A stretch of DNA of 64,000 bases from Lachnospiraceae bacterium (GTDB lineage: Bacteria > Bacillota > Clostridia > Lachnospirales > Lachnospiraceae). Below, piece by piece: positions 3,728 to 53,162 of this stretch. The stretch's first letter is position 1. Every line of letters starts with the position of its first letter. Where the stretch lies: assembly GCA_045122835.1 (NCBI GenBank), contig JBGVIB010000047.1, positions 38,036 through 102,035 of the forward strand. The letters run 5' to 3'. The notes beneath the pieces were generated by a model. That model saw only the letters and a program-made list of their open reading frames with translations, was not told the DNA's origin and made no database searches. The translations under genes and the position numbers were made by a program.

Positions 3728-3858
3728 GTTACTGTTCATACAGGACTTAACATTCATTACTAAGTTCTGAGAAAACGTAGTGCAGGCGGGTAAAAATCCA
3801 TCACCGAAGGTGATTTTCATGGATTTTTACTCGTTACTGGAACGGAGTGAACAGTAAC
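3728..3858 (+). mobile_element. Divergent short copy of the MITE-like repeat family (see copies at 19466, 27215, 42527)
   Basis: Terminal inverted repeat GTTACTGTTCA...TGAACAGTAAC. Shares the core GAAAACGTAGTG..AAAAATCCATCACCGAAGGTGATT..CATGGATTTTT with the other copies. No ORF. Confidence 0.65.
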
Positions 3859-18975: not shown

Positions 18976-19410
18976 TTAATTGTTATTTTCTGAATTCATC
19001 TGTTCAAACATCATAGAGTACATGTCTATCATAGATTGTTGTTCCGGCGGCAACATATTTTTAATGGCATCCATAGGAGATTGGCTGTCGCTGTTCATAA
19101 TATCTTGATATTTATTAATCATTTCCATGGATTGTATGAAATGAATCAGAGTATCAATTGTTTGTCGCTCCGCAGGATTGCACACAGGGCGAATGTTTGT
19201 CAGTAGGGGCAGTAAATTATCTTTCCCTCCTTCAAACGAGCAGGCTTTCATGGTTGGTGGATGACGGATGTAGTGCATAGTATCCTGCAACTCTTTATAT
19301 TTAATGAGAAAGGAAACCATGCCCTGCATATTGGGACTTGTGTACGGCATAGCTGCTGAGAGCAGCTCTAATGCATGGGAATTTAATTGAAATGAAGTAG
19401 GGAATCTCAT
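18976..19410 (-). CDS. Hypothetical protein (144 aa, Met/Gln-rich C-terminus)
   Basis: Intact ORF with a GGAG RBS. No family recognised. Confidence 0.6.
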   Translation of the reverse strand: MRFPTSFQLNSHALELLSAAMPYTSPNMQGMVSFLIKYKELQDTMHYIRHPPTMKACSFEGGKDNLLPLLTNIRPVCNPAERQTIDTLIHFIQSMEMINKYQDIMNSDSQSPMDAIKNMLPPEQQSMIDMYSMMFEQMNSENNN

Positions 19411-19465
19411 ACGCAGCTCCTTTTATAGTATTTGGGTGTCTGAATAGGGAAAACAATGAAAATAT

Positions 19466-19631
19466 GTAACTATTCAGAACAGGACTGTGCTGAACTGCAC
19501 AGTCCGTATGAAAACGTAGTGGCAGCAGGCCAAAATCCATCACCGTAGGTGATTCTGCATGGATTTTGGCCTGTTATTATGAATGTAATTCATAATAACA
19601 TTGGTAACCTATGAGGGAACTGAATAGTTAC
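19466..19631 (+). mobile_element. MITE-like non-coding repeat, 166-bp copy, flanked by a perfect 8-bp direct duplication
   Basis: TIR GTAACTATTCAG...CTGAATAGTTAC. Flanks are GAAAATAT (19458-19465) and GAAAATAT (19632-19639). Nested hairpins. No ORF. Confidence 0.8.
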
Positions 19632-19736
19632 GAAAATATTTATTTTCTACAATTAACAGAAACCGTCTTAATGCATATATATGTAGTAATTTAAAAAACT
19701 ATGAATAGCAATCTAAAGGCAGGAAAGGAAATAAAT

Positions 19737-19932: not shown

Positions 19933-20163
19933 TTAGCAGAAAGAACCACCATGGTTTCCGCCACCGCAGCAGCAGAGTAAAAGGATAATCCAGATGATGC
20001 TTCCACAGCCGTTGTTTCCATCACAGCCACAGCTTCCGCCGATGCCGGAACCGTTACAACCGCCGCCACAGCAGCAGAGTAAAAGAATAATCCAGATAAT
20101 ATTTCCACATCCATTGTTTCCTTCGCAGCCGCAGCCGCAGTTTGTTGCAGCGAGATCACTCAT
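19933..20163 (-). CDS. Cys/Gly-rich tandem-repeat micro-protein (76 aa) with two short hydrophobic IIWIILLLCCC segments
   Basis: MSDLAATNCGCGCEGNNGCGNIIWIILLLCCCGGGCNGSGIGGSCGCDGNNGCGSIIWIILLLCCCGGGNHGGSFC. GGAGG RBS 8 nt upstream of ATG 20163. Terminator immediately downstream. Confidence 0.7.
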   Translation of the reverse strand: MSDLAATNCGCGCEGNNGCGNIIWIILLLCCCGGGCNGSGIGGSCGCDGNNGCGSIIWIILLLCCCGGGNHGGSFC

Positions 20164-22964: not shown

Positions 22965-23261
22965 AACAATTAATAAATAAACCAGTGAGCAAGAGAAGTA
23001 GATTGTGGAAAAAGCTTACAGAGAGTCGCAGGTGGTGAGATTGCGATAGTGGTGTTTTTACACAGAAACAGTTGAATGGACTTGTGAGGGCAGCCTGAAC
23101 ATTAGTAGGAGCTGACGGGAATCCCATCCGTTATCAACGGGAGGCACATGATGGTGTGTTTACAGAGTGGATACTATGTATCAATTTGGGTGGTACCGCA
23201 GGAGCAGATTATATAACTCTTGTCCCATAGAATTAATTTCTATGGGGCAGGAGTTTTTTTT
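22965..23261 (+). promoter_or_regulatory. T-box riboswitch leader, Trp (UGG) specifier, with terminator
   Basis: Specifier context 'GAA-TGG-A' (TGG at 23077-23079). T-box core AATTTGGGTGGTACCGCAG (23183-23201). Terminator AACTCTTGTCCCATAGAA..TTCTATGGGGCAGGAGTT plus T8. Confidence 0.9.
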
Positions 23262-23343: not shown

Positions 23344-24801
23344 ATGATTACACCAACATTAGAACAAGTGAAAGCATTAAACCAATCGTACAATATGATA
23401 CCAATCTGTAAGGAGATTTATGCAGATGTAATAACACCAATTCAATTGTTACGAAAAGTAGCCAAAGTCAGTAAAAATTACTATCTGTTAGAGAGTGTGG
23501 AGCATGGGACACAGGGAAGATATTCCTTCTTAGGATTTGACCCGTTGTTACGAGCCGTTTGTAAAGATGGCGTAGTAACATTGAAAAGTGGAAGTATAAA
23601 AAAACAGATTACCGGTCAACCGATGCAGGTGTTGCGGGAATTGTTAGCAGAGTACAAGACGCCAAAGATAGAGGGAATGCCTCCTTTTACTGGTGGGTTT
23701 GTAGGCTACTTTTCATATGAAATGTTTGGTTATGCTGAACCGAAACTTCATATGAAGAAAAATGATTTTTACGATTTTGACTTGATGTTGTTTGATAAAG
23801 TTATTGTTTATGATAACCTGAAGCAGAAAATTAGCGTTGTAGTAAATATGAATGGAGAAGATGGAGAGGAAGGATATCATGCTACAGAATTAGAAATTGA
23901 TAAAATACTTCGCATGATAATGGATACCACACCACTGCCAAAGACAGAAGCAGAGGAAGCACCGGTATTTACTTGCAATATGTCAAAAGAACGTTACTGT
24001 GAAATGGTGAAAAAAACAAAAGAATATATAAGAGAGGGCGATATTTTCCAGGGAGTTATTTCAAGACGATTTGAAGCAGATTATCACAGCAGTCTTCTTA
24101 ATGCGTACCGGATTTTGCGAACAACCAATCCGTCGCCGTACATGTATTTCATACAAAGCGATGATGTACAGATATGTGGTGCTTCTCCAGAAACGATGGT
24201 GAAGCTAGTAGATGGTAAATTAACTACATTTCCAGTGGCAGGAACAAGAAAGCGCGGTGCTACAAAGGCAGAAGATGACGCATTAGAAGTAGAACTTCTT
24301 GCTGATGAAAAAGAGTTGGCAGAGCATAATATGCTGGTTGATTTGGCAAGAAATGATATTGGAAGAGTTGCTAAATACGGCACGGTAGAAGTGGAAGATT
24401 ACATGAGTATTCATCGCTTCTCGAAAGTAATGCATATTGCTTCTACTGTATATGGAAAAATTGCTGAAGATAAAGATGGCTGCGATACCATAGCTGCACT
24501 GCTTCCGGCAGGAACATTGTCAGGAGCACCAAAGTTCCGGGCTTGTGAGATTATTGATGAGTTAGAACCGGTATCAAGAGGAATTTATGGAGGAGCTATT
24601 GGGTATTTAGATTTTTCCGGCAATTTAGATGTCTGCATTGCTATTCGTACTGCAGTTAAAAAGGGTGATAAGGTATATGTCCAGGCAGGAGCCGGGGTTG
24701 TGGCTGACAGTATTCCGGAAAATGAATATGAAGAATGTGCAAATAAAGCAGGTGCAGTGATTGATGCAATTATGCGGGCAAGTGAGGTGAATGGATTATG
24801 A
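23344..24801 (+). CDS. trpE: Anthranilate synthase component I
   Basis: 485 aa. Chorismate-binding motifs 'GDIFQGVISRRF', 'NPSPYMYF' and 'GGAIGYL'. Confidence 0.95.
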   Translation: MITPTLEQVKALNQSYNMIPICKEIYADVITPIQLLRKVAKVSKNYYLLESVEHGTQGRYSFLGFDPLLRAVCKDGVVTLKSGSIKKQITGQPMQVLRELLAEYKTPKIEGMPPFTGGFVGYFSYEMFGYAEPKLHMKKNDFYDFDLMLFDKVIVYDNLKQKISVVVNMNGEDGEEGYHATELEIDKILRMIMDTTPLPKTEAEEAPVFTCNMSKERYCEMVKKTKEYIREGDIFQGVISRRFEADYHSSLLNAYRILRTTNPSPYMYFIQSDDVQICGASPETMVKLVDGKLTTFPVAGTRKRGATKAEDDALEVELLADEKELAEHNMLVDLARNDIGRVAKYGTVEVEDYMSIHRFSKVMHIASTVYGKIAEDKDGCDTIAALLPAGTLSGAPKFRACEIIDELEPVSRGIYGGAIGYLDFSGNLDVCIAIRTAVKKGDKVYVQAGAGVVADSIPENEYEECANKAGAVIDAIMRASEVNGL

Positions 24802-26429: not shown

Positions 26430-27203
26430 ATGATATTAGATAAATTGGCTGCTTCCACCAGATTGCGAGTGGAGAAGGATAAGAAAAAAATACCACCGGA
26501 TAAAATGAAAGAAATGGCTTTGTCTATGCCAAAAGGACCCTTTGCATTTGAAAATCAGGTAAAAAAACCAGGCATTCATTTTATCTGTGAAGTAAAGAAA
26601 GCATCTCCCTCAAAAGGTGTGATTGCAGAAGAATTTCCATATTTGCAGATTGCAAAGGAATATGAAGGGGCAGGAGCGGATTGCATTTCTGTTCTGACAG
26701 AACCAGATTATTTCTTAGGAAAAGATGAATATCTATCAGAAATCAAAAAAGAAGTGTCCATACCAGTGCTTCGTAAAGACTTTACCGTAGATGAATACCA
26801 GATTTATCAGGCAAAAACCTTACATGCAGATTGTATATTGCTCATTTGTTCTTTGTTGTCGGAGGAAGAATTAAGAAAGTACATAGAAATTTGTGAAGAA
26901 TTAGGACTGTCTGCTTTGGTGGAAACCCATGACGAAGCAGAAATACAGATGGCAGTCCGGGCTGGTGCAAGAATGCTTGGCGTCAACAACAGGAACTTGA
27001 AAACTTTTGAGGTGGATATTCACAATAGTGAGCGTTTGCGGGCGCTGGTTCCAACAGATATTTTGTTTGTGGCAGAGAGTGGCATTAGGAACCGGTCGGA
27101 TATCGAGGTTCTTGAAAATGCCAATGTGAATGGTGTTCTTATAGGTGAAACCTTAATGCGAAGCACAGATAAGAAAGCTGAATTAGATAAACTTAGAGGA
27201 TAA
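26430..27203 (+). CDS. trpC: Indole-3-glycerol-phosphate synthase
   Basis: 'ICEVKKASPSKG', 'ISVLTE', 'LRKDF' and 'GVNNRNL' motifs. 257 aa, with no fused PRAI domain. Confidence 0.95.
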   Translation: MILDKLAASTRLRVEKDKKKIPPDKMKEMALSMPKGPFAFENQVKKPGIHFICEVKKASPSKGVIAEEFPYLQIAKEYEGAGADCISVLTEPDYFLGKDEYLSEIKKEVSIPVLRKDFTVDEYQIYQAKTLHADCILLICSLLSEEELRKYIEICEELGLSALVETHDEAEIQMAVRAGARMLGVNNRNLKTFEVDIHNSERLRALVPTDILFVAESGIRNRSDIEVLENANVNGVLIGETLMRSTDKKAELDKLRG

Positions 27204-27214
27204 GTTGAAAGAAT

Positions 27215-27396
27215 GTAACTATTCAGAACCAGGACAATACAAGCTTGTATGGTGCCAAACTGCACAGTCCGTATGAAAACGTAGTGGTAGCAGGCCAAAA
27301 ACCATCACCGTAGGTGATTCTGCATGGATTTTTGCCTGTTATTATGAATGCAATTCATAATAACATTGGTAACCTATGAGGGTACTGAATAGTTAC
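27215..27396 (+). mobile_element. MITE-like non-coding repeat, 182-bp copy, 11 bp downstream of trpC
   Basis: TIR GTAACTATTCAGAACC...GGTACTGAATAGTTAC. Near-identical to the copy at 42527-42708. No ORF. Confidence 0.8.
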
Positions 27397-27673
27397 TAAA
27401 AATGTAACAAAGAAGAATCATTTATGCAAGAAAAAGAGATAGACAAACTTCGACACTATGCCAGGGTTAGATGGAGGCTGTTCCGGGTGCTTAATCTGTC
27501 ATGACAAATCAAAACATATAAGCACAATGTTGGTAGCTTGTTTGCAGGCTATGTTTCAGGTGAAAAATAGGTTGCATAAAAAAGCGTATTGGTGCTATCA
27601 TAATTTATGATTGATAAATCTTATTTGTCAAAATAGCTGAAAAAATGTAGAAAAGTTTTTGGAGGAAATCAGT

Positions 27674-28078
27674 ATGGATAATTGTATTTTTTGTAAAATA
27701 GCAAAGGGAGAAATTCCATCTGCAACCATTTATGAAGATGAAAAGGTAAAAATGATTTTAGATATTAATCCTGCATCTAAAGGTCATGCATTAATATTAC
27801 CAAAGCAGCATTATGCAAATGTATATGAGATTGATGAAGATACTTTAACACATATTATTAAGATTGCTAAAAGAGCAGGAACCCAGATGCAGGCTGCATT
27901 GAATTGTGATGGTTTGAATATTCTGCAGAATAATGGGGAAGCAGCCGGACAGACTGTATTCCATTTCCACATGCATGTGATTCCACGTTATGAGAATGAT
28001 ACTGTGTCTGTGCAGTTAGGAAACGGTGTACTCAGTGAAGATGACAGGGATGAACTTGTGAAGAAGTTAAGCTTTTAA
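27674..28078 (+). CDS. HIT-family (histidine triad) nucleotide hydrolase
   Basis: 'CIFCKIAKGEIP' and the histidine triad 'FHFHMHVIPR'. GGAGGA RBS before ATG 27674. Confidence 0.9.
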   Translation: MDNCIFCKIAKGEIPSATIYEDEKVKMILDINPASKGHALILPKQHYANVYEIDEDTLTHIIKIAKRAGTQMQAALNCDGLNILQNNGEAAGQTVFHFHMHVIPRYENDTVSVQLGNGVLSEDDRDELVKKLSF

Positions 28079-41120: not shown

Positions 41121-41278
41121 CTTTTATTCAGAGTGGTGGAGATACAAAGGATCTGTGAAGCCACGGCAACCCCTTAAAAGGAAGGTGCCAACCTGAGCGG
41201 CAGCCATATACGATGGCTGTTCGAACAATAAGAGGATTTGTATATAAAAACGAATCCGCTTATTGCGGATTTTTTTTT
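41121..41278 (+). promoter_or_regulatory. SAM-I (S-box) riboswitch with terminator
   Basis: P1 CTTTTATT / AATAAGAG. Conserved 'AGAGTGGTGGAG', 'CACGGCAACC' and 'GGTGCCAA' elements. Terminator GAATCCGC-ttatt-GCGGATT plus T9 (41252-41278). Confidence 0.85.
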
Positions 41279-41348: not shown

Positions 41349-42530
41349 ATGGAAAGATTTTTATTTACATCAGAATCAGTAACTGAAGGACATCCTGATA
41401 AAATCTGTGATGCAGTATCCGATGCAATTTTAGATGCTATGTTAGAGCAGGATCCAATGAGCCGTGTGGCTTGTGAAACACTTACTAACACAGGATTTAT
41501 TATGGTAATGGGTGAGCTTACATCTAATGCACAGGTGGATATTCCAAAGGTAGTGCGTGATACGATTGTAGAAATCGGTTATGACCGTTCTGACTATGGA
41601 TTTGACGGAAATACATGCGCGGTAATGGTAGCTTTGGACAAGCAGTCTCCAGATATTGCCATGGGTGTTGATAAAGCATTAGAAGCAAGAGAAGGTGCCT
41701 TAGAAGATGATTTAGACACTGGTGCAGGCGACCAGGGTATGATGTTTGGATATGCCACAAATGAAACGGAAGAATATATGCCTTACCCAATCGCATTGGC
41801 ACATAAGTTATCAAGACGTTTAACAGAAGTGCGTAAGAATGGTACGTTGCCATATTTAAGACCGGATGGTAAAACACAGGTAACCATAGAGTATGATGAA
41901 AATGGCAAGCCAATTCGTTTAGAAGCAGTTGTATTATCAACTCAGCACAATCCGGAGGCGACACAGGAGCAGATTCATGAAGATATTATGAGAGAAGTAT
42001 TTGATGTGGTGCTTCCAGCAGACCTTCGTGATGAGAATACAAAATATTTCATCAATCCAACCGGTCGTTTTGTTATTGGTGGACCAAACGGTGATAGTGG
42101 ATTGACTGGTCGTAAGATTATCGTAGACACATACGGCGGATGGGCACGTCATGGCGGCGGTGCATTCTCTGGTAAGGACTGCACAAAAGTTGACCGTTCT
42201 GCAGCTTATGCGGCACGTTATGTGGCGAAGAATATTGTTGCAGCAGGTTTGGCAGATAAATGTGAAATTCAGTTATCCTACGCAATCGGTGTGGCACAGC
42301 CAACCTCTATCATGGTAGATACTTTTGGTACAGGAAAGATTTCTGATGAAGAATTAGTAAAGGCAATCCGTGAGAACTTTGACTTACGTCCGGCTGGTAT
42401 TATTAAAATGTTAGATTTGAGAAGACCAATTTACAAGCAGACATCTGCGTATGGACATTTTGGACGCAACGATTTGCACTTACCATGGGAGCAGACTGAT
42501 AAGGCTGATATTTTGAAAAAATATTTGTAA
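41349..42530 (+). CDS. metK: S-adenosylmethionine synthase
   Basis: '[13 protein letters not shown]', 'GAGDQG', 'GGGAFSGKD' and '[10 protein letters not shown]' motifs. The stop codon TAA (42528-42530) lies within the first bases of the MITE copy. Confidence 0.97.
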
Positions 42531-42708
42531 CTATTCAGAACCAGGACAATACAATCTTGTATTGTGCCAAACTGCACAGTCCGTATGAAAACGTAGTGGC
42601 AGCAGGCTAAAATCCATCACCGTAGGTGATTCTGCATGGATTTTGGCCTGTTATTATGATTGCAATTCATAATAACATTGGTAACCTATGAGGGTACTGA
42701 ATAGTTGC
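42527..42708 (+). mobile_element. MITE-like non-coding repeat, 182-bp copy inserted at the metK stop codon, with a perfect 8-bp target-site duplication
   Basis: TIR GTAACTATTCAGAACC...GGTACTGAATAGTTGC. Flanks are AAATATTT (42519-42526) and AAATATTT (42709-42716). The metK terminator lies downstream of the element. Confidence 0.85.
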
Positions 42709-42728
42709 AAATATTTATAAGAGATTTG

Positions 42729-42760
42729 GAATCCGCTGGCGTAGGCTGGCGGATTTTTTT
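42729..42760 (+). terminator. Rho-independent terminator (displaced metK terminator)
   Basis: AATCCGCTGGC-gtag-GCTGGCGGATT followed by T7. Confidence 0.8.
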
Positions 42761-42762
42761 CT

Positions 42763-42797
42763 ATGCGCACGAATTTGAAAGGAAGATGCACTGCGTG
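42763..42797 (+). repeat. 35-bp exact repeat, copy 1 (second copy at 52099-52133)
   Basis: ATGCGCACGAATTTGAAAGGAAGATGCACTGCGTG is identical at both sites. Confidence 0.9.
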
Positions 42798-42887
42798 CTA
42801 AATATACTTTGATAATAAAAATATATTGTCTTTTCCAAACAAATACCGTATACTATGAAAAAAGCGTATGGCAAAGGAGGTCAGGCT

Positions 42888-47894: not shown

Positions 47895-47909
47895 CAGGGT
47901 AATTATTTA

Positions 47910-47934
47910 GAATCACCTACGGTGATGGATTTTA
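47910..47934 (-). repeat. Solo 25-nt fragment of the MITE core hairpin, inverted orientation
   Basis: GAATCACCTACGGTGATGGATTTT is the reverse complement of AAAATCCATCACCGTAGGTGATTC found in all full copies. Confidence 0.7.
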
Positions 47935-47981
47935 GATTTCTAAAATTGTGTTGTCCAGTTGTCCATAAGAAGACATAGAAA

Positions 47982-48704: not shown

Positions 48705-49955
48705 ATGGGAATGACAATTGCAGAAAAAATTATTGCCAGAGCAGCAGGTGTTTCAGAAGTAAAACCGGGGGATATCCATACCGTTGAAGTAGATCAGTTA
48801 ATGAGTAACGATGGTACTACACATCTTACCATCGACATGTATCACAACAAATTAAAAAATCCAAAGATTGCAGACGTAAATAAATTAGTCTGGATTGTAG
48901 ACCACAACGTACCGTCAGATAGTCCAAAGACAGCAGCTTCCCACAAGAAAATGAGAGATTTTGCAAAAGAGCATGGCATTACGTTTTATGAGGGACAGGG
49001 AGTCTGTCACCAGATTATGATGGAGAACCATGTTCGCCCGGGACAGCTTATTTTCGGTGCAGACAGCCATACCTGTGCATATGGTGCTTTAGGTGCATTT
49101 GGTACTGGTGTAGGATGTACAGATTATCTGTATGCCATGGTAACAGGCAAATCATGGGTATTAGTGCCGGAGACTATTCGTTTTAATTTAACAGGAAAAT
49201 TAAAAGATGGTGTCTATGCAAGAGACCTTATCTTAACTATCATTGGAAAAATCAGCGCTAACGGAGCCAACTACAAGGCAATGGAATTTGCCGGAGAAGG
49301 CTTAAAGACTTTAACTATGAGTGACCGTATTGCAATCTGTAATCTGTGCGTGGAAGCCGGTGCAAAGACAGCACTTATGGAAGTAGACGAAGTAGCTATG
49401 GACTATTTAAAAGAACATGGCAGAGAGCCGGTAGCAACCTATACAAGTGATGAAGATGCTGTATTTTCAGAAGTATATGACATCAATTTAGATGAAATTG
49501 AACCAATTGTAGCAAAGCCACACTTTGTAGATAACGTAGTACCTGCAAAAGAATGTGCAGGAGTAAAAATAGACGAAGCTTTCTTAGGTTCCTGCAATAA
49601 CGGACGTTTAGAAGACTTAAGAGTAGGCGCAGAAATCCTTAAGGGCAAGAAAGTACACCCATTAGTACGTTTCTTAGTAGTACCGGCAAGTAATGCAGTA
49701 TATCAGGCAGCCTTAGAGGAAGGGCTTATCGATATCTTTATGGAAGCAGGCGCCATCGTCATGAATGCCAATTGCAGTGTATGCTGGGGAAGCTGCCAGG
49801 GTGTAATCGGCGAAGGCGAAACACTAATCAGTACCGGTACCCGTAACTTTAAAGGACGCGCCGGTCACCCGGATTCCTTCGTATATTTAGCATCCGCCGC
49901 AACGGTAACTGCATCTGCGATAAAGGGTGTAATTGCGACTGCGGATGAAGTGTAA
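48705..49955 (+). CDS. Aconitase-family large subunit (LeuC-type), pair 1, atypical cluster-binding motif
   Basis: 416 aa. 'GADSHT', 'GSCNNGRLEDL' and the Cys motif 'NANCSVCWG' instead of the usual PGCGxCxG. Confidence 0.85.
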   Translation: MGMTIAEKIIARAAGVSEVKPGDIHTVEVDQLMSNDGTTHLTIDMYHNKLKNPKIADVNKLVWIVDHNVPSDSPKTAASHKKMRDFAKEHGITFYEGQGVCHQIMMENHVRPGQLIFGADSHTCAYGALGAFGTGVGCTDYLYAMVTGKSWVLVPETIRFNLTGKLKDGVYARDLILTIIGKISANGANYKAMEFAGEGLKTLTMSDRIAICNLCVEAGAKTALMEVDEVAMDYLKEHGREPVATYTSDEDAVFSEVYDINLDEIEPIVAKPHFVDNVVPAKECAGVKIDEAFLGSCNNGRLEDLRVGAEILKGKKVHPLVRFLVVPASNAVYQAALEEGLIDIFMEAGAIVMNANCSVCWGSCQGVIGEGETLISTGTRNFKGRAGHPDSFVYLASAATVTASAIKGVIATADEV

Positions 49956-50615: not shown

Positions 50616-51860
50616 ATGGGCGCAACAATTATCGAAAAAATTGTTCGGAAGAACACAGGAATAGATACAGCAAAAGCAAATGACATTGTAACTGTAAACG
50701 TAGACCGTGTCATGATACATGATATTTTTATCCCATTCGTAGCAGAAAAATTCGAGGAAATGGGATTCACAAAACTTTGGGATGCAGACAAAGTGGTACT
50801 GATTTATGACCATTTAGTACCGGCAAGTCAGGTAGATGACACCAGACATTTCCGTGTAGGAAATGAATTCGTAGAAAAATACGGAATGAAAAATATCCAC
50901 CGTTCTGACGGAATCTGTCACCAGCTTATGACAGAAGCAGGCTACGTAAAGCCTGGCAATATTGTATTTGGTACAGACAGCCATACTACTACATATGGAT
51001 GCGTTGGTGCATTTTCTTCAGGTATTGGTTATACAGAAATGGCAAGTATTTTAGGAACGGGAACTATGTGGATTAAAGTGCCGGAGACTATCCGTGTCAA
51101 TATTACAGGTACATTGCCGGCTAATGTAACCTCTAAGGATATTATCCTTCGTCTTATCGGTGATTTAGGTGCAGACGGTGCAACTTATAAAGCATTGGAG
51201 TTTGCCGGGGATACCGTGGAAGCCATGAGCGTGGCAAGCCGTATGACCATTGCAAACATGGCAATTGAAGCAGGTGCAAAATGTGCCTTATTTACGCCAG
51301 ATGAAAAGACAGCAGAGTATTGCAACATGGAATTAACAGATGCAGAACGTGATTTGGTTGGTGATGCAGATGCTTCTTATGTGAAAGTAATCAATTATAA
51401 GGCAGAGGACTTTGTTCCTGTTCTGGCATGTCCGTCCCAGGTGGACAATATCAAGCCAGTCAGTGAGTTAGAAGGAACAGAAATCGACCAGGTATTTATC
51501 GGTTCCTGTACCAACGGCCGATTAGAAGATTTAGAGAAGGCAGCTGCTTACTTAAAGGGCAAAAAAGTAGCCCCTTATGTGAAATGTATTATCACACCGG
51601 CAAGCCGTAAGATATACAAAGAAGCAGCTGCCAATGGTACACTTGCCATTTTAGCAGAAGCGGGTGCTATTATCACACATCCGGGCTGTGGTCTGTGCTG
51701 TGGTCGTACCGGTGGTATCTTAACAGACGGTGAGCGTGTAGTGGCTACCAACAACCGTAATTTCTTAGGAAGAATGGGAACCTCAAAGGTAGAAATCTTC
51801 TTAGCGTCTCCTGCAACAGCAGCAGCTTGTGCGGTGGCTGGGAAGATTGTGATGCCGTAA
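50616..51860 (+). CDS. leuC: 3-isopropylmalate dehydratase-type large subunit, pair 2
   Basis: 414 aa. 'GTDSHTTT', 'GSCTNGRLEDL' and the canonical 'HPGCGLCCG'. The symbol is a family-level assignment only. Confidence 0.75.
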   Translation: MGATIIEKIVRKNTGIDTAKANDIVTVNVDRVMIHDIFIPFVAEKFEEMGFTKLWDADKVVLIYDHLVPASQVDDTRHFRVGNEFVEKYGMKNIHRSDGICHQLMTEAGYVKPGNIVFGTDSHTTTYGCVGAFSSGIGYTEMASILGTGTMWIKVPETIRVNITGTLPANVTSKDIILRLIGDLGADGATYKALEFAGDTVEAMSVASRMTIANMAIEAGAKCALFTPDEKTAEYCNMELTDAERDLVGDADASYVKVINYKAEDFVPVLACPSQVDNIKPVSELEGTEIDQVFIGSCTNGRLEDLEKAAAYLKGKKVAPYVKCIITPASRKIYKEAAANGTLAILAEAGAIITHPGCGLCCGRTGGILTDGERVVATNNRNFLGRMGTSKVEIFLASPATAAACAVAGKIVMP

Positions 51861-51999: not shown

Positions 52000-52035
52000 T
52001 CCCGGCGAAAGCGTAGGTTTTTGCTGGGATTTTTC
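52000..52035 (+). terminator. Probable operon terminator
   Basis: CCCGGC-N16-GCTGGG stem (one G-U) followed by ATTTTT. Confidence 0.45.
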
Positions 52036-52090
52036 ATATACTAGGAAATTACAACATTTTATTTTGGGATGTTGTAATTTCCTAGTATAT
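52036..52090. repeat. Perfect 22-bp-stem palindrome with 11-nt loop
   Basis: ATATACTAGGAAATTACAACAT-tttattttggg-ATGTTGTAATTTCCTAGTATAT. Confidence 0.9.
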
Positions 52091-52098
52091 AAAATATG

Positions 52099-52133
52099 AT
52101 GCGCACGAATTTGAAAGGAAGATGCACTGCGTG
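52099..52133 (+). repeat. 35-bp exact repeat, copy 2 (first copy at 42763-42797)
   Basis: Identical 35-mer. Both copies lie about 100 nt upstream of a transcription-factor gene. Confidence 0.9.
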
Positions 52134-52241: not shown

Positions 52242-53162
52242 ATGCCAGAAACATACAAAGATGAATACATAGCCCGCATACAAAAAGTACAAGATTATAT
52301 CGAAAAAAATTACCAGAAAGCCATGTCCACAGAAGAACTTGCAGAAGTGGCAGGGTTTTCTAAATATCATTTTAATCGTATTTTTAAAAGTGTATTGCAG
52401 GAGTCATTATTGCAGTATGTGAACCGAATCCGCCTGGAGCATTCCCTTTTTATGCTGGCTCACAGACAGGATTTTAATATGACAGGCATTGCCTATGAGC
52501 TTGGGTTCGCTGATTCAGCAGTTTTTTCAAGAGCATTTAAGAACCATTATGGAATAAGTCCTCTTACTTATAGAAAAAAATACAGCACGAATTGCAAAGA
52601 AAACATTTTTATTTCAGAGTACAATAAGGCTGAAAAAAAGAAGAAATGGGTAAAAGATCCGTTTTCTGCAACTGGGGAAATGCGAATAGAAACCTTAGAA
52701 TCAAAGAATGTAGTTTATGTAAGACATGTAGGAAATTACAAGTCACTAGCAAGAGCCTATGTGAAGCTGATGCATGAGTTATTCAAAGGTGCAGAAAAAC
52801 AACATCTTTTGAAACCAGGTCAGAACCAAGTCTTTGTCATGTATCATGATAATCCGGAATTTGGAAAGGAAGAACAGTTTCGTACCAGTTTATGTTTAAC
52901 AATCCCGGAAGATTGTAAAGCCAGAGAAGAGGGAAAGTTAGGCGTAATGAAGTTAGAAGGCGGACTTTATGCTGTCGGACATTATGAAATAACAAAAGGA
53001 CAATTTGAAGATGCCTGGGATCACATGTATCAGAAATGGCTTATGACAAGCGGATATGTTCCTAGAAATGCCTGTCCCCTTGAGGTATACCTCAATAATC
53101 CGAACGAAGAGAAAGGTCATCTGATTAAAGTAGAGATTTATGTGCCGATTGAACCCATTTAA
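52242..53162 (+). CDS. AraC-family transcriptional regulator with C-terminal GyrI-like effector-binding domain
   Basis: N-terminal AraC HTH ('SKYHFNRIFK', 'GFADSAVFSRAFK'). C-terminal about 150-aa GyrI-like region. Confidence 0.85.
   Translation: MPETYKDEYIARIQKVQDYIEKNYQKAMSTEELAEVAGFSKYHFNRIFKSVLQESLLQYVNRIRLEHSLFMLAHRQDFNMTGIAYELGFADSAVFSRAFKNHYGISPLTYRKKYSTNCKENIFISEYNKAEKKKKWVKDPFSATGEMRIETLESKNVVYVRHVGNYKSLARAYVKLMHELFKGAEKQHLLKPGQNQVFVMYHDNPEFGKEEQFRTSLCLTIPEDCKAREEGKLGVMKLEGGLYAVGHYEITKGQFEDAWDHMYQKWLMTSGYVPRNACPLEVYLNNPNEEKGHLIKVEIYVPIEPI

Follow-up and report, generated by a model that had tools for sequence, protein, structure and literature searches.

A miniature transposon family with IS66/ISBst12-type ends and a covarying hairpin core in gut Lachnospiraceae

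We analysed a 64,000-nucleotide stretch from a Lachnospiraceae bacterium (assembly GCA_045122835.1, contig JBGVIB010000047.1, positions 38,036 to 102,035; hereafter the window), in which a short, hairpin-rich repeat occurs in three near-identical copies. This repeat is very probably a miniature transposon, or MITE (miniature inverted-repeat transposable element), that lacks a transposase of its own and carries the ends of insertion sequences (ISs) of the IS66 family with a single open reading frame (ORF), of the ISBst12 type. Our reading as a MITE is based on its termini and target duplications, on an orthologous site that is empty, on bursts of identical copies found in a relative, and on partner ISs that have these ends and give duplications of equal length. 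The assignment to IS66/ISBst12 is made on the GTAA ends, the 8-bp duplication and the single DDE_Tnp_IS66 ORF. Throughout the text, L-numbers (L005, L033, L124 and so on) are labels of other contigs or loci that we examined.

The three copies all lie on the + strand at the positions given in Table 1, as a preliminary description of this sequence had reported, and their pairwise identity over ungapped columns is 95.2–95.8%. A repeat finder grouped them as one family, and three stretches of 166–182 nt at 95% identity cannot have arisen by chance. In agreement with that description, a single 16-nt palindromic insert in the first hairpin is the sole length difference between the 166-nt and the 182-nt forms. 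The 12-bp terminal inverted repeat (TIR), GTAACTATTCAG, had been described as perfect in every copy; copies 1 and 2 do carry it without change at both of their ends, whereas the right end of copy 3 has one mismatch (GTTGC). The proposed extension of the TIR to 16 nt with one mismatch is true for copy 2 and, apart from the right-end mismatch, for copy 3, but false for copy 1. With up to two mismatches allowed, the 12-mer occurs 16 times in the window against 5.9 expected occurrences. Perfect 8-bp direct duplications flank copies 1 and 3 on either side (GAAAATAT and AAATATTT, respectively), as had been stated. Two further sites, which the preliminary description had missed, are occupied, one by a 131-nt copy of a divergent subfamily (the 3728 copy) and the other by a decayed fragment (the 47901 fragment). 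When a covariance model of the family was run over the whole window with filters off, it recovered copies 1–3, the 3728 copy and the 47901 fragment, and nothing more. None of the copies has coding capacity, again as described, since they are 131–182 nt long, are overlapped only by spurious antisense ORFs, and differ between subfamilies by indels that would break any reading frame.

We scanned one genome per species with a pattern made from the conserved core, and obtained at least 21 matches in the Lachnospiraceae metagenome-assembled genome (MAG) fecal_MAG_249 (JBGVMW01; hereafter MAG_249) and one match each in two other Lachnospiraceae MAGs. The matches found in Patescibacteria, Marinobacter, an archaeon and Allocopromorpha lay inside genes and were discarded as chance. 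Most MAG_249 copies are of a 134-nt form without hairpin P4, and 14 are identical in sequence. Perfect 8-bp duplications, each of a different sequence, flank 13 copies, and one copy has a duplication matching at 7/8 positions; a more divergent copy that shares its contig with another copy (L005 5033–5165) has a 7/8 duplication. Many MAG_249 contigs end within the repeat. In the same MAG, the right-end hairpin stands alone between two genes at L011 603–629 (GTAACTAGGAGAGTACTCAATAGTTAC), and may be a remnant or an excision footprint.

MAG_249 is syntenic with the window, with the order aroA-metK-marR-DUF885-MCP kept (MCP, chemoreceptor gene) and a MarR that is 85% identical; more distant MarR homologues are labelled Roseburia or Lachnospiraceae by their source. 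In the window, the metK-marR spacer consists of AAATATTT, a 182-nt element and a second AAATATTT. In MAG_249 and two other contigs (L033, L036, L037) the same spacer is empty and reads ...GAAG AAATATTT ATAA..., with a single AAATATTT, which makes an exact pair of empty and filled sites. The idea of a mobile, non-autonomous element put forward in the preliminary description is thus borne out, both by this empty site and by the termini and 8-bp duplications that other genomic copies keep. Between their DUF885 and MCP genes, MAG_249 and its relatives retain a truncated copy with the element's initial 75 nt (L033 6608–6682; also in L034 and L037–L040), an old insertion that has decayed and that has no counterpart at this site in the window.

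The element had also been called recently active. This applies to MAG_249, with its 14 identical copies, but not to the genome of the window, where the copies have diverged by about 5%, one duplication has been lost and both sites checked are filled in contigs of the same species. For copy 3 this was the case in 3/3 such contigs and for copy 1 in 10/10, eight of them with a complete element and two ending within it. At the copy 1 site, under the same GAAAATAT duplication (L291–L298), four contigs have the 166-nt form and four the 182-nt form, which points to gene conversion between copies, to the 16-nt palindrome having been lost or gained in place, or to chimeras of metagenome assembly.

A second pattern, built to exclude the main subfamily and scanned over a metagenome collection, gave at least 120 matches of other subfamilies, many of them from human-gut assemblies. 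The matches listed and the earlier loci together made up 114 non-redundant insertions, mostly of 133 nt, and both flanks could be tested for 108. Among these, a perfect 8-bp duplication was found in 75/108, with a 7/8 match in a further 16. The target sites of the insertions listed are AT-rich, with a preference for G or A at the first position, and the gene neighbourhood of the copies is not conserved. A relative of the 3728 copy with 91% identity, located in another MAG (L006), is flanked by the duplication GAATGGGG.

ISs that are bounded by the same GTAACTATTCAG termini and encode a transposase, for which the preliminary description had suggested a search, do exist. A scan of viral contigs for the 15-nt end was mostly noise, and screening it for inverted end pairs 1.5–2.2 kb apart yielded the first two partner ISs, L124 and L143; a first pattern scan of viral contigs had produced two matches, which were rejected as chance occurrences in coding DNA. 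By homologue search we obtained intact transposases of 479 and 491 aa with DUF6444 (PF20042) and DDE_Tnp_IS66 (PF03050) domains, and precomputed matches to both domains are available for the products of L164 and L305. The partner ISs (in L124, L143, L164, L170 and L301–L306) are 1.7–1.8 kb long with one long ORF, and their ends are GTAACTATTCAGAACCC or GTAACTGTTCAGAACCCC. The 1826-bp IS, which has the G-variant end, is present on more than 140 contigs and belongs to Lachnospiraceae by source name. The IS66-family elements L124, L143 and L164 begin with the same 12 nt as the left TIR of copy 1. Moreover, IS and MITE ends share the A/G alternative at position 7: in the MITE, the main subfamily and the window copies carry GTAACTATTCAG and most 133-nt copies carry GTAACTGTTCAG. 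The first bases of the MITE are GTAAC in window copies 1–3, in other main-family copies and in the 133-nt subfamily, and GTTAC in a variant subfamily. In ISs of the Ruminococcus callidus type (L143 5100–5330, L170 354–1796), the transposase is interrupted by an in-frame stop, leaving a 44-aa piece from the N terminus and an ORF of 417 aa. This split form is very common (a cluster of 579 members, with one sequence on up to 1000 contigs), and it may represent a degenerate copy or be subject to readthrough or recoding.

Published data on the family match these ends. The inverted repeats of IS66 start with GTAAGCG or GTAACCG (PMC12888890), and IS66 generates 8-nt direct repeats (PMC10017437). ISDge4, which belongs to the ISBst12 group of IS66, has the ends GTGACTACTCAGCA and GTAACTGCTCAGCA, an 8-bp direct repeat and a single ORF (PMC12898284). 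As in the ISBst12 group (ISBst12, ISDge4), the ends described here start with GTAACT..TCAG and the target duplication is 8 bp. Unlike IS66/ISBst12 elements, the window element is 131–182 nt long, has no ORF and has an unrelated interior, so that only the terminal 12–16 bp are common to both.

Several points weigh against this assignment. Copy 2, whose flanks agree at 4/8 positions and whose state the preliminary description did not mention, and the 3728 copy have no target duplication. The absence of a transposase from the window, noted earlier, was supported by tblastn, which found no IS66-family transposase in the window or in the approximately 170 kb of MAG_249 examined. The ISs with exact A-variant ends are labelled Ruminococcus or R. 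callidus, and not Lachnospiraceae, by their sources (L164 protein cluster). Furthermore, the identity between MITE and IS is limited to 12–16 terminal bases, which leaves the origin of the core unexplained by the partner ISs: beyond these bases, the similarity of the MITE subterminal sequence to particular IS ends was too weak to assign, and no trace of the core was found in the partner ISs with the covariance model (filters off) or with blastn. The sampled partners therefore did not give rise to the core by simple internal deletion. Finally, the choice of transposase and its action in trans are inferences, mobilisation itself being read from sequence.

In the mechanism that we propose for this MITE, an IS66-type DDE transposase supplied in trans would bind the GTAACT(A/G)TTCAG ends and would integrate the element into AT-rich intergenic DNA by an 8-bp staggered cut, which would give rise to the 8-bp duplication. 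Structured copies are most likely those that proliferate or persist, and a compact fold, adopted by single-stranded DNA (ssDNA) or by read-through RNA of either orientation, may render insertions in untranslated regions (UTRs) or promoter regions harmless.

The core consists of two or three hairpins and a further hairpin at the right end. The architecture common to all subfamilies comprises the TIR helix, P2, the conserved junction CGTA(A/T)GAAAAC, the long P3 with its 3' bulge and P3a, and the right-end hairpin, which forms when the initial 7–8 TIR bases, repeated internally, pair with the very end of the element. P4 is found in the 166- and 182-nt forms only and is missing from the 131–134-nt forms; both P4 and the 16-nt insert are optional modules. 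The hairpins listed in the preliminary description are real, and the elements fold far better than shuffled sequences (+ strand RNA: copy 1, z = −9.4; copy 2, z = −5.3). For − strand RNA the value was z = −5.1, and for copy 1 folded as DNA z = −10.1.

We examined covariation in a plain MAFFT alignment of 69 distinct sequences, with slid partners and 500 shuffles as controls. In the stems, 94.0% of the cells were paired, compared with 30–42% for slid partners, and the covariation score was 0.149 compared with 0.082 in the shuffles, none of which (0/500) reached 0.149. Covariation was strongest in P3a (CG48/UA20, GC45/AU22/UA2, GC40/CG29), for which at least six different perfectly complementary stems exist. 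The TIR columns were paired in 97% of cases across the 69 sequences, and the 8-bp helix at the right end was 99.6% paired and covaries. At the A/G position, the right-end hairpin showed 0 unpaired cases (GC44/AU24/GU1), whereas the long-range TIR pairing showed 7 unpaired cases and 17 G·U. A model-fitted alignment, which leans towards the structure by construction, gave 93.8% paired cells, with 35/44 pairs changed on both sides. The search pattern itself imposed part of the sequence conservation of P3 and of the right end, but not the covariation of P2 and P3a. The stems are maintained by compensatory changes across subfamilies, and this maintenance may take place at the level of ssDNA, of RNA of either orientation, or of palindrome correction by template switching.

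One explanation of this pattern, compatible with the MITE and concerning only its core, is that the core is a functional structured module that rides on IS66-type ends and whose hairpins are kept by selection, which we regard as a genuine but doubtful possibility. As RNA, such a module would have a role in 3' or 5' UTRs, for instance as an exonuclease block, a processing site or a protein-binding site; as ssDNA, it would aid transposition. The preliminary description had offered a selected structured module in place of a mobile element; the covarying stems agree with a module of this kind, but it is not an alternative that excludes the MITE. In favour of function, the stems covary although their sequences change, the core is not present in the partner ISs, and the single-stranded CGTA(A/T)GAAAAC is kept between subfamilies found by different search patterns. 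Copy 3 must be transcribed, given its position between the metK stop and the terminator, and there is a precedent in bcr1 of Bacillus cereus, which is transcribed and whose cruciform-like RNA is kept by compensatory changes (PMC3184786). The orientation of the copies adds a weak bias in the same direction: where the flanking ORFs are co-directional, the element is oriented with the genes in 35 cases and against them in 17 (p = 0.018), based on a crude ORF caller and confounded with replication direction. Against a function as RNA, the minus strand folds equally well, and the non-Watson-Crick cells (65 G·U vs 84 A·C, outside one helix chosen from + strand RNA folds) carry no strand signal, as G·U would be expected to exceed A·C if one transcribed strand were selected. 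P4 and the 16-nt insert are optional, and the conservation of P3 and of the right end comes in part from the search pattern, which also speaks against a functional core. A stronger version, which we think rather improbable, holds that the core is a selected structural module missing from the partner ISs that is either needed for efficient IS66-type mobilisation or is a portable RNA element in host transcripts, shaping mRNA ends and spread by transposition among the genomes of gut Lachnospiraceae. If true, a structured-DNA requirement for mobilisation would be something unknown so far for the IS66 family.

The compensatory pattern could instead be mutational, with intra-strand template switching in replication or repair correcting imperfect palindromes by copying from arm to arm and the hairpins having no function. 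Quasi-palindrome correction acts on short palindromes with small loops, and the covarying helices are indeed short perfect palindromes with 3–11-nt loops. The symmetry of G·U and A·C is what a DNA-level process predicts, and at the A/G position pairing is kept more strictly in the right-end hairpin than in the long-range TIR helix. We nevertheless consider this explanation unlikely, as it accounts neither for the conservation of the unpaired junction nor for the same architecture in subfamilies that have diverged by about 30%. The two remaining explanations would replace the MITE itself. An early idea, that the copies are stand-alone small RNA genes or cis-regulatory RNAs with the TIR as closing helix, drew on a first comparison of the main copies with the 3728 variant, in which the terminal helix and the inner hairpins differed by compensatory changes. 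It was ruled out by the target duplications and the empty site, and we now hold it to be very unlikely: the 8-bp target duplications at 75 insertions, among the matches listed, are unrelated to each other, an exact empty site exists, the gene neighbourhood is not conserved, Rfam offers no match and the termini are identical to those of transposase-bearing ISs. The hairpin density and the subterminal right-end hairpin are reminiscent of palindromic elements of the REP/BIME (repetitive extragenic palindrome/bacterial interspersed mosaic element) or IS200/IS605 type, moved by a Y1 (HUH) transposase on ssDNA hairpins. Such elements have neither TIR nor target duplication, whereas the present one has a TIR and a fixed 8-bp duplication, and the matching autonomous elements encode DDE_Tnp_IS66 and not a Y1 transposase, which makes this origin barely conceivable.

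The MITE was also compared with known families. No Rfam family matches the element: searching the whole window at the gathering threshold returned a T-box and a SAM riboswitch only, the element searched at E up to 10 gave noise only, and nine loci with other subfamilies gave one tRNA only. Plasmid and phage collections searched with the element by blastn gave no match, and a literature text search for the end sequences retrieved unrelated primers only. We found no description of the family in the literature searched, where no MITE is tied to Lachnospiraceae or to these ends (ISfinder was not among the sources). Bacterial MITEs include Correia/NEMIS of Neisseria, ERIC, RUP/BOX/SPRITE of Streptococcus pneumoniae, MITEPsy1 and MITEAba12 (PMC3184786, PMC3189936, PMC6382973). 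Like these, the window element is short, non-coding and intergenic, with a TIR and a target duplication, and such MITEs are often co-transcribed and are mobilised in trans by an IS transposase. It differs from them in IS family and in duplication length (4 bp in MITEPsy1), and while most bacterial MITEs form one whole-element hairpin, the window element has a branched core of separate covarying hairpins. The closest likeness is to bcr1, the group A repeats found in the Bacillus cereus group, which are MITE-like, intergenic and multi-copy, about 155 bp long and flanked by direct repeats (PMC3184786). Both are Firmicute repeats with predicted independent stem-loops kept by compensatory changes (PMC3184786); bcr1 differs in its 5-bp direct repeats, its transcription is experimentally established, and the likeness drawn here is one of structure and layout. 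The family is a MITE of the IS66/ISBst12 lineage and of an ordinary kind, and its only unusual trait, the covarying branched core, has a precedent.

Table 1. Positions of the repeat copies, of the parts of copy 1 and of partner ISs (window coordinates unless a locus label is given).
Feature	Position	Strand	Details
MITE copy 1, 166-nt form	19466-19631	+	Between a − strand gene of unknown function (18976-19410) and an HPr-like gene region
MITE copy 2, 182-nt form	27215-27396	+	No intact target duplication (4/8)
MITE copy 3, 182-nt form	42527-42708	+	AAATATTT at 42519-42526 and 42709-42716
Copy of divergent subfamily, 131 nt (3728 copy)	3728-3858	+	Ends GTTACTGTTCA...TGAACAGTAAC; covariance model 88 bits; no target duplication left
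Decayed fragment, part of P3/P3a only (47901 fragment)	~47901-47955	-	Covariance model 16.4 bits, model positions 68-98
Target-site duplication of copy 1, GAAAATAT	19458-19465 (left), 19632-19639 (right)		8/8 match
Left TIR of copy 1, GTAACTATTCAG	19466-19477	+	Right TIR 19620-19631; presumed transposase recognition end
Hairpin P2	19482-19505	+	GGACTGTGC / GCACAGTCC; covaries across subfamilies
Hairpin P3	19528-19571	+	GGCCAAAATCCAT / ATGGATTTTGGCC; 7-nt 3' bulge; apical P3a
Mini-hairpin P3a	19541-19551	+	CACC-GTA-GGTG
Hairpin P4, optional 32-nt module	19574-19598	+	TTATTATGAAT-GTA-ATTCATAATAA
Right-end local hairpin	19604-19631	+	Internal copy of first TIR bases (GTAAC-C-TAT) pairs with terminal ATAGTTAC
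Partner IS L124	645-2440 (1796 bp)		Duplication CTATGGCA; ORF vs DDE_Tnp_IS66 (PF03050) E = 2.5e-39
Partner IS L143	3864-5576 (1713 bp)		Duplication AGAAAATC; ORF vs DDE_Tnp_IS66 (PF03050) E = 7e-40
Partner IS L164	1235-2948 (1714 bp)		GTAACTATTCAGAACCC at both ends; intact 479-aa ORF
Partner IS L305	871-2696 (1826 bp)		Ends GTAACTGTTCAGAACCCC; duplication AAAAAGAT

The window copies disrupt no genes. The last codons of metK are the insertion site of copy 3, which lies upstream of the metK terminator (~42728–42760) and whose GTAA end provides the metK stop codon (42528–42530), with TTG TAA in place of the ancestral TTA TAA (compare L033 3790–3815), so that the MetK protein sequence is unchanged. 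Copy 2 begins 11 nt past the stop of trpC, which encodes indole-3-glycerol phosphate synthase (IGPS, 26430–27203), and a HIT-family gene lies downstream (27659–28078); an exact look-up of the HIT protein gave no match. Copy 1 adjoins the start of a − strand gene, and a scan for promoters and terminators around it found no promoter-like or terminator-like site inside the element. The 3728 copy is flanked by two divergently oriented genes, for a CLC channel (−) and for an L,D-transpeptidase (+), and in two spacers (those of copy 1 and of the 3728 copy) at least one flanking gene points away. The 47901 fragment lies directly past the stop of a chemoreceptor (MCP) gene.

Several other features of the window were recorded. 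The T-box leader (22976–23230) is located 114 nt upstream of a long ORF starting at 23344, which is followed by a run of same-strand ORFs ending in trpC, and the SAM-I riboswitch (41121–41234) is found upstream of metK; both score above their Rfam gathering thresholds. In the ORF region adjoining copy 1, two 76-nt direct repeats that are 102 nt apart and 86% identical (19958–20135) are probably a repeated protein segment. Two adjacent ORFs, each about 415 aa long (48705–49955 and 50616–51860), have a 71%-identical stretch in common (49048–49123 and 50962–51037). Each of the two has a small ORF in front, the first of which matches Aconitase_C, and the pairs look like paralogous two-gene units. 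A second repeat family consists of a long near-perfect hairpin, ATATACTAGGAAATTACAACA...TGTTGTAATTTCCTAGTATAT (RNA fold z = −7.8), and, after it, a conserved box, ATGCGCACGAATTTGAAAGGAAGATGCACTGCGTG. It was found at 52029–52133 and 42763–42810 in the window, at L008 2830–2935, and in L012, L018, L021, L023 and L024. In the window, the box alone is present upstream of marR, whereas the gene at 52242 has the full unit upstream of it, and in MAG_249 this repeat often lies directly beside a MITE copy.

The MITE described here is common in gut Lachnospiraceae, abundant commensals whose mobile elements are poorly annotated, and its family is a well-documented addition to the ISBst12 branch of IS66, which has been little studied. 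Since its copies break MAG assemblies and occupy the UTRs of core genes (metK, trpC), knowing the family aids both assembly and annotation. The end variants that match between MITE subfamilies and IS lineages form a natural system for the study of end recognition in the IS66 family, the mechanism of which is poorly known. Finally, the covarying core provides a clean test of whether the structure of a bacterial MITE is selected or is a by-product of palindrome repair.

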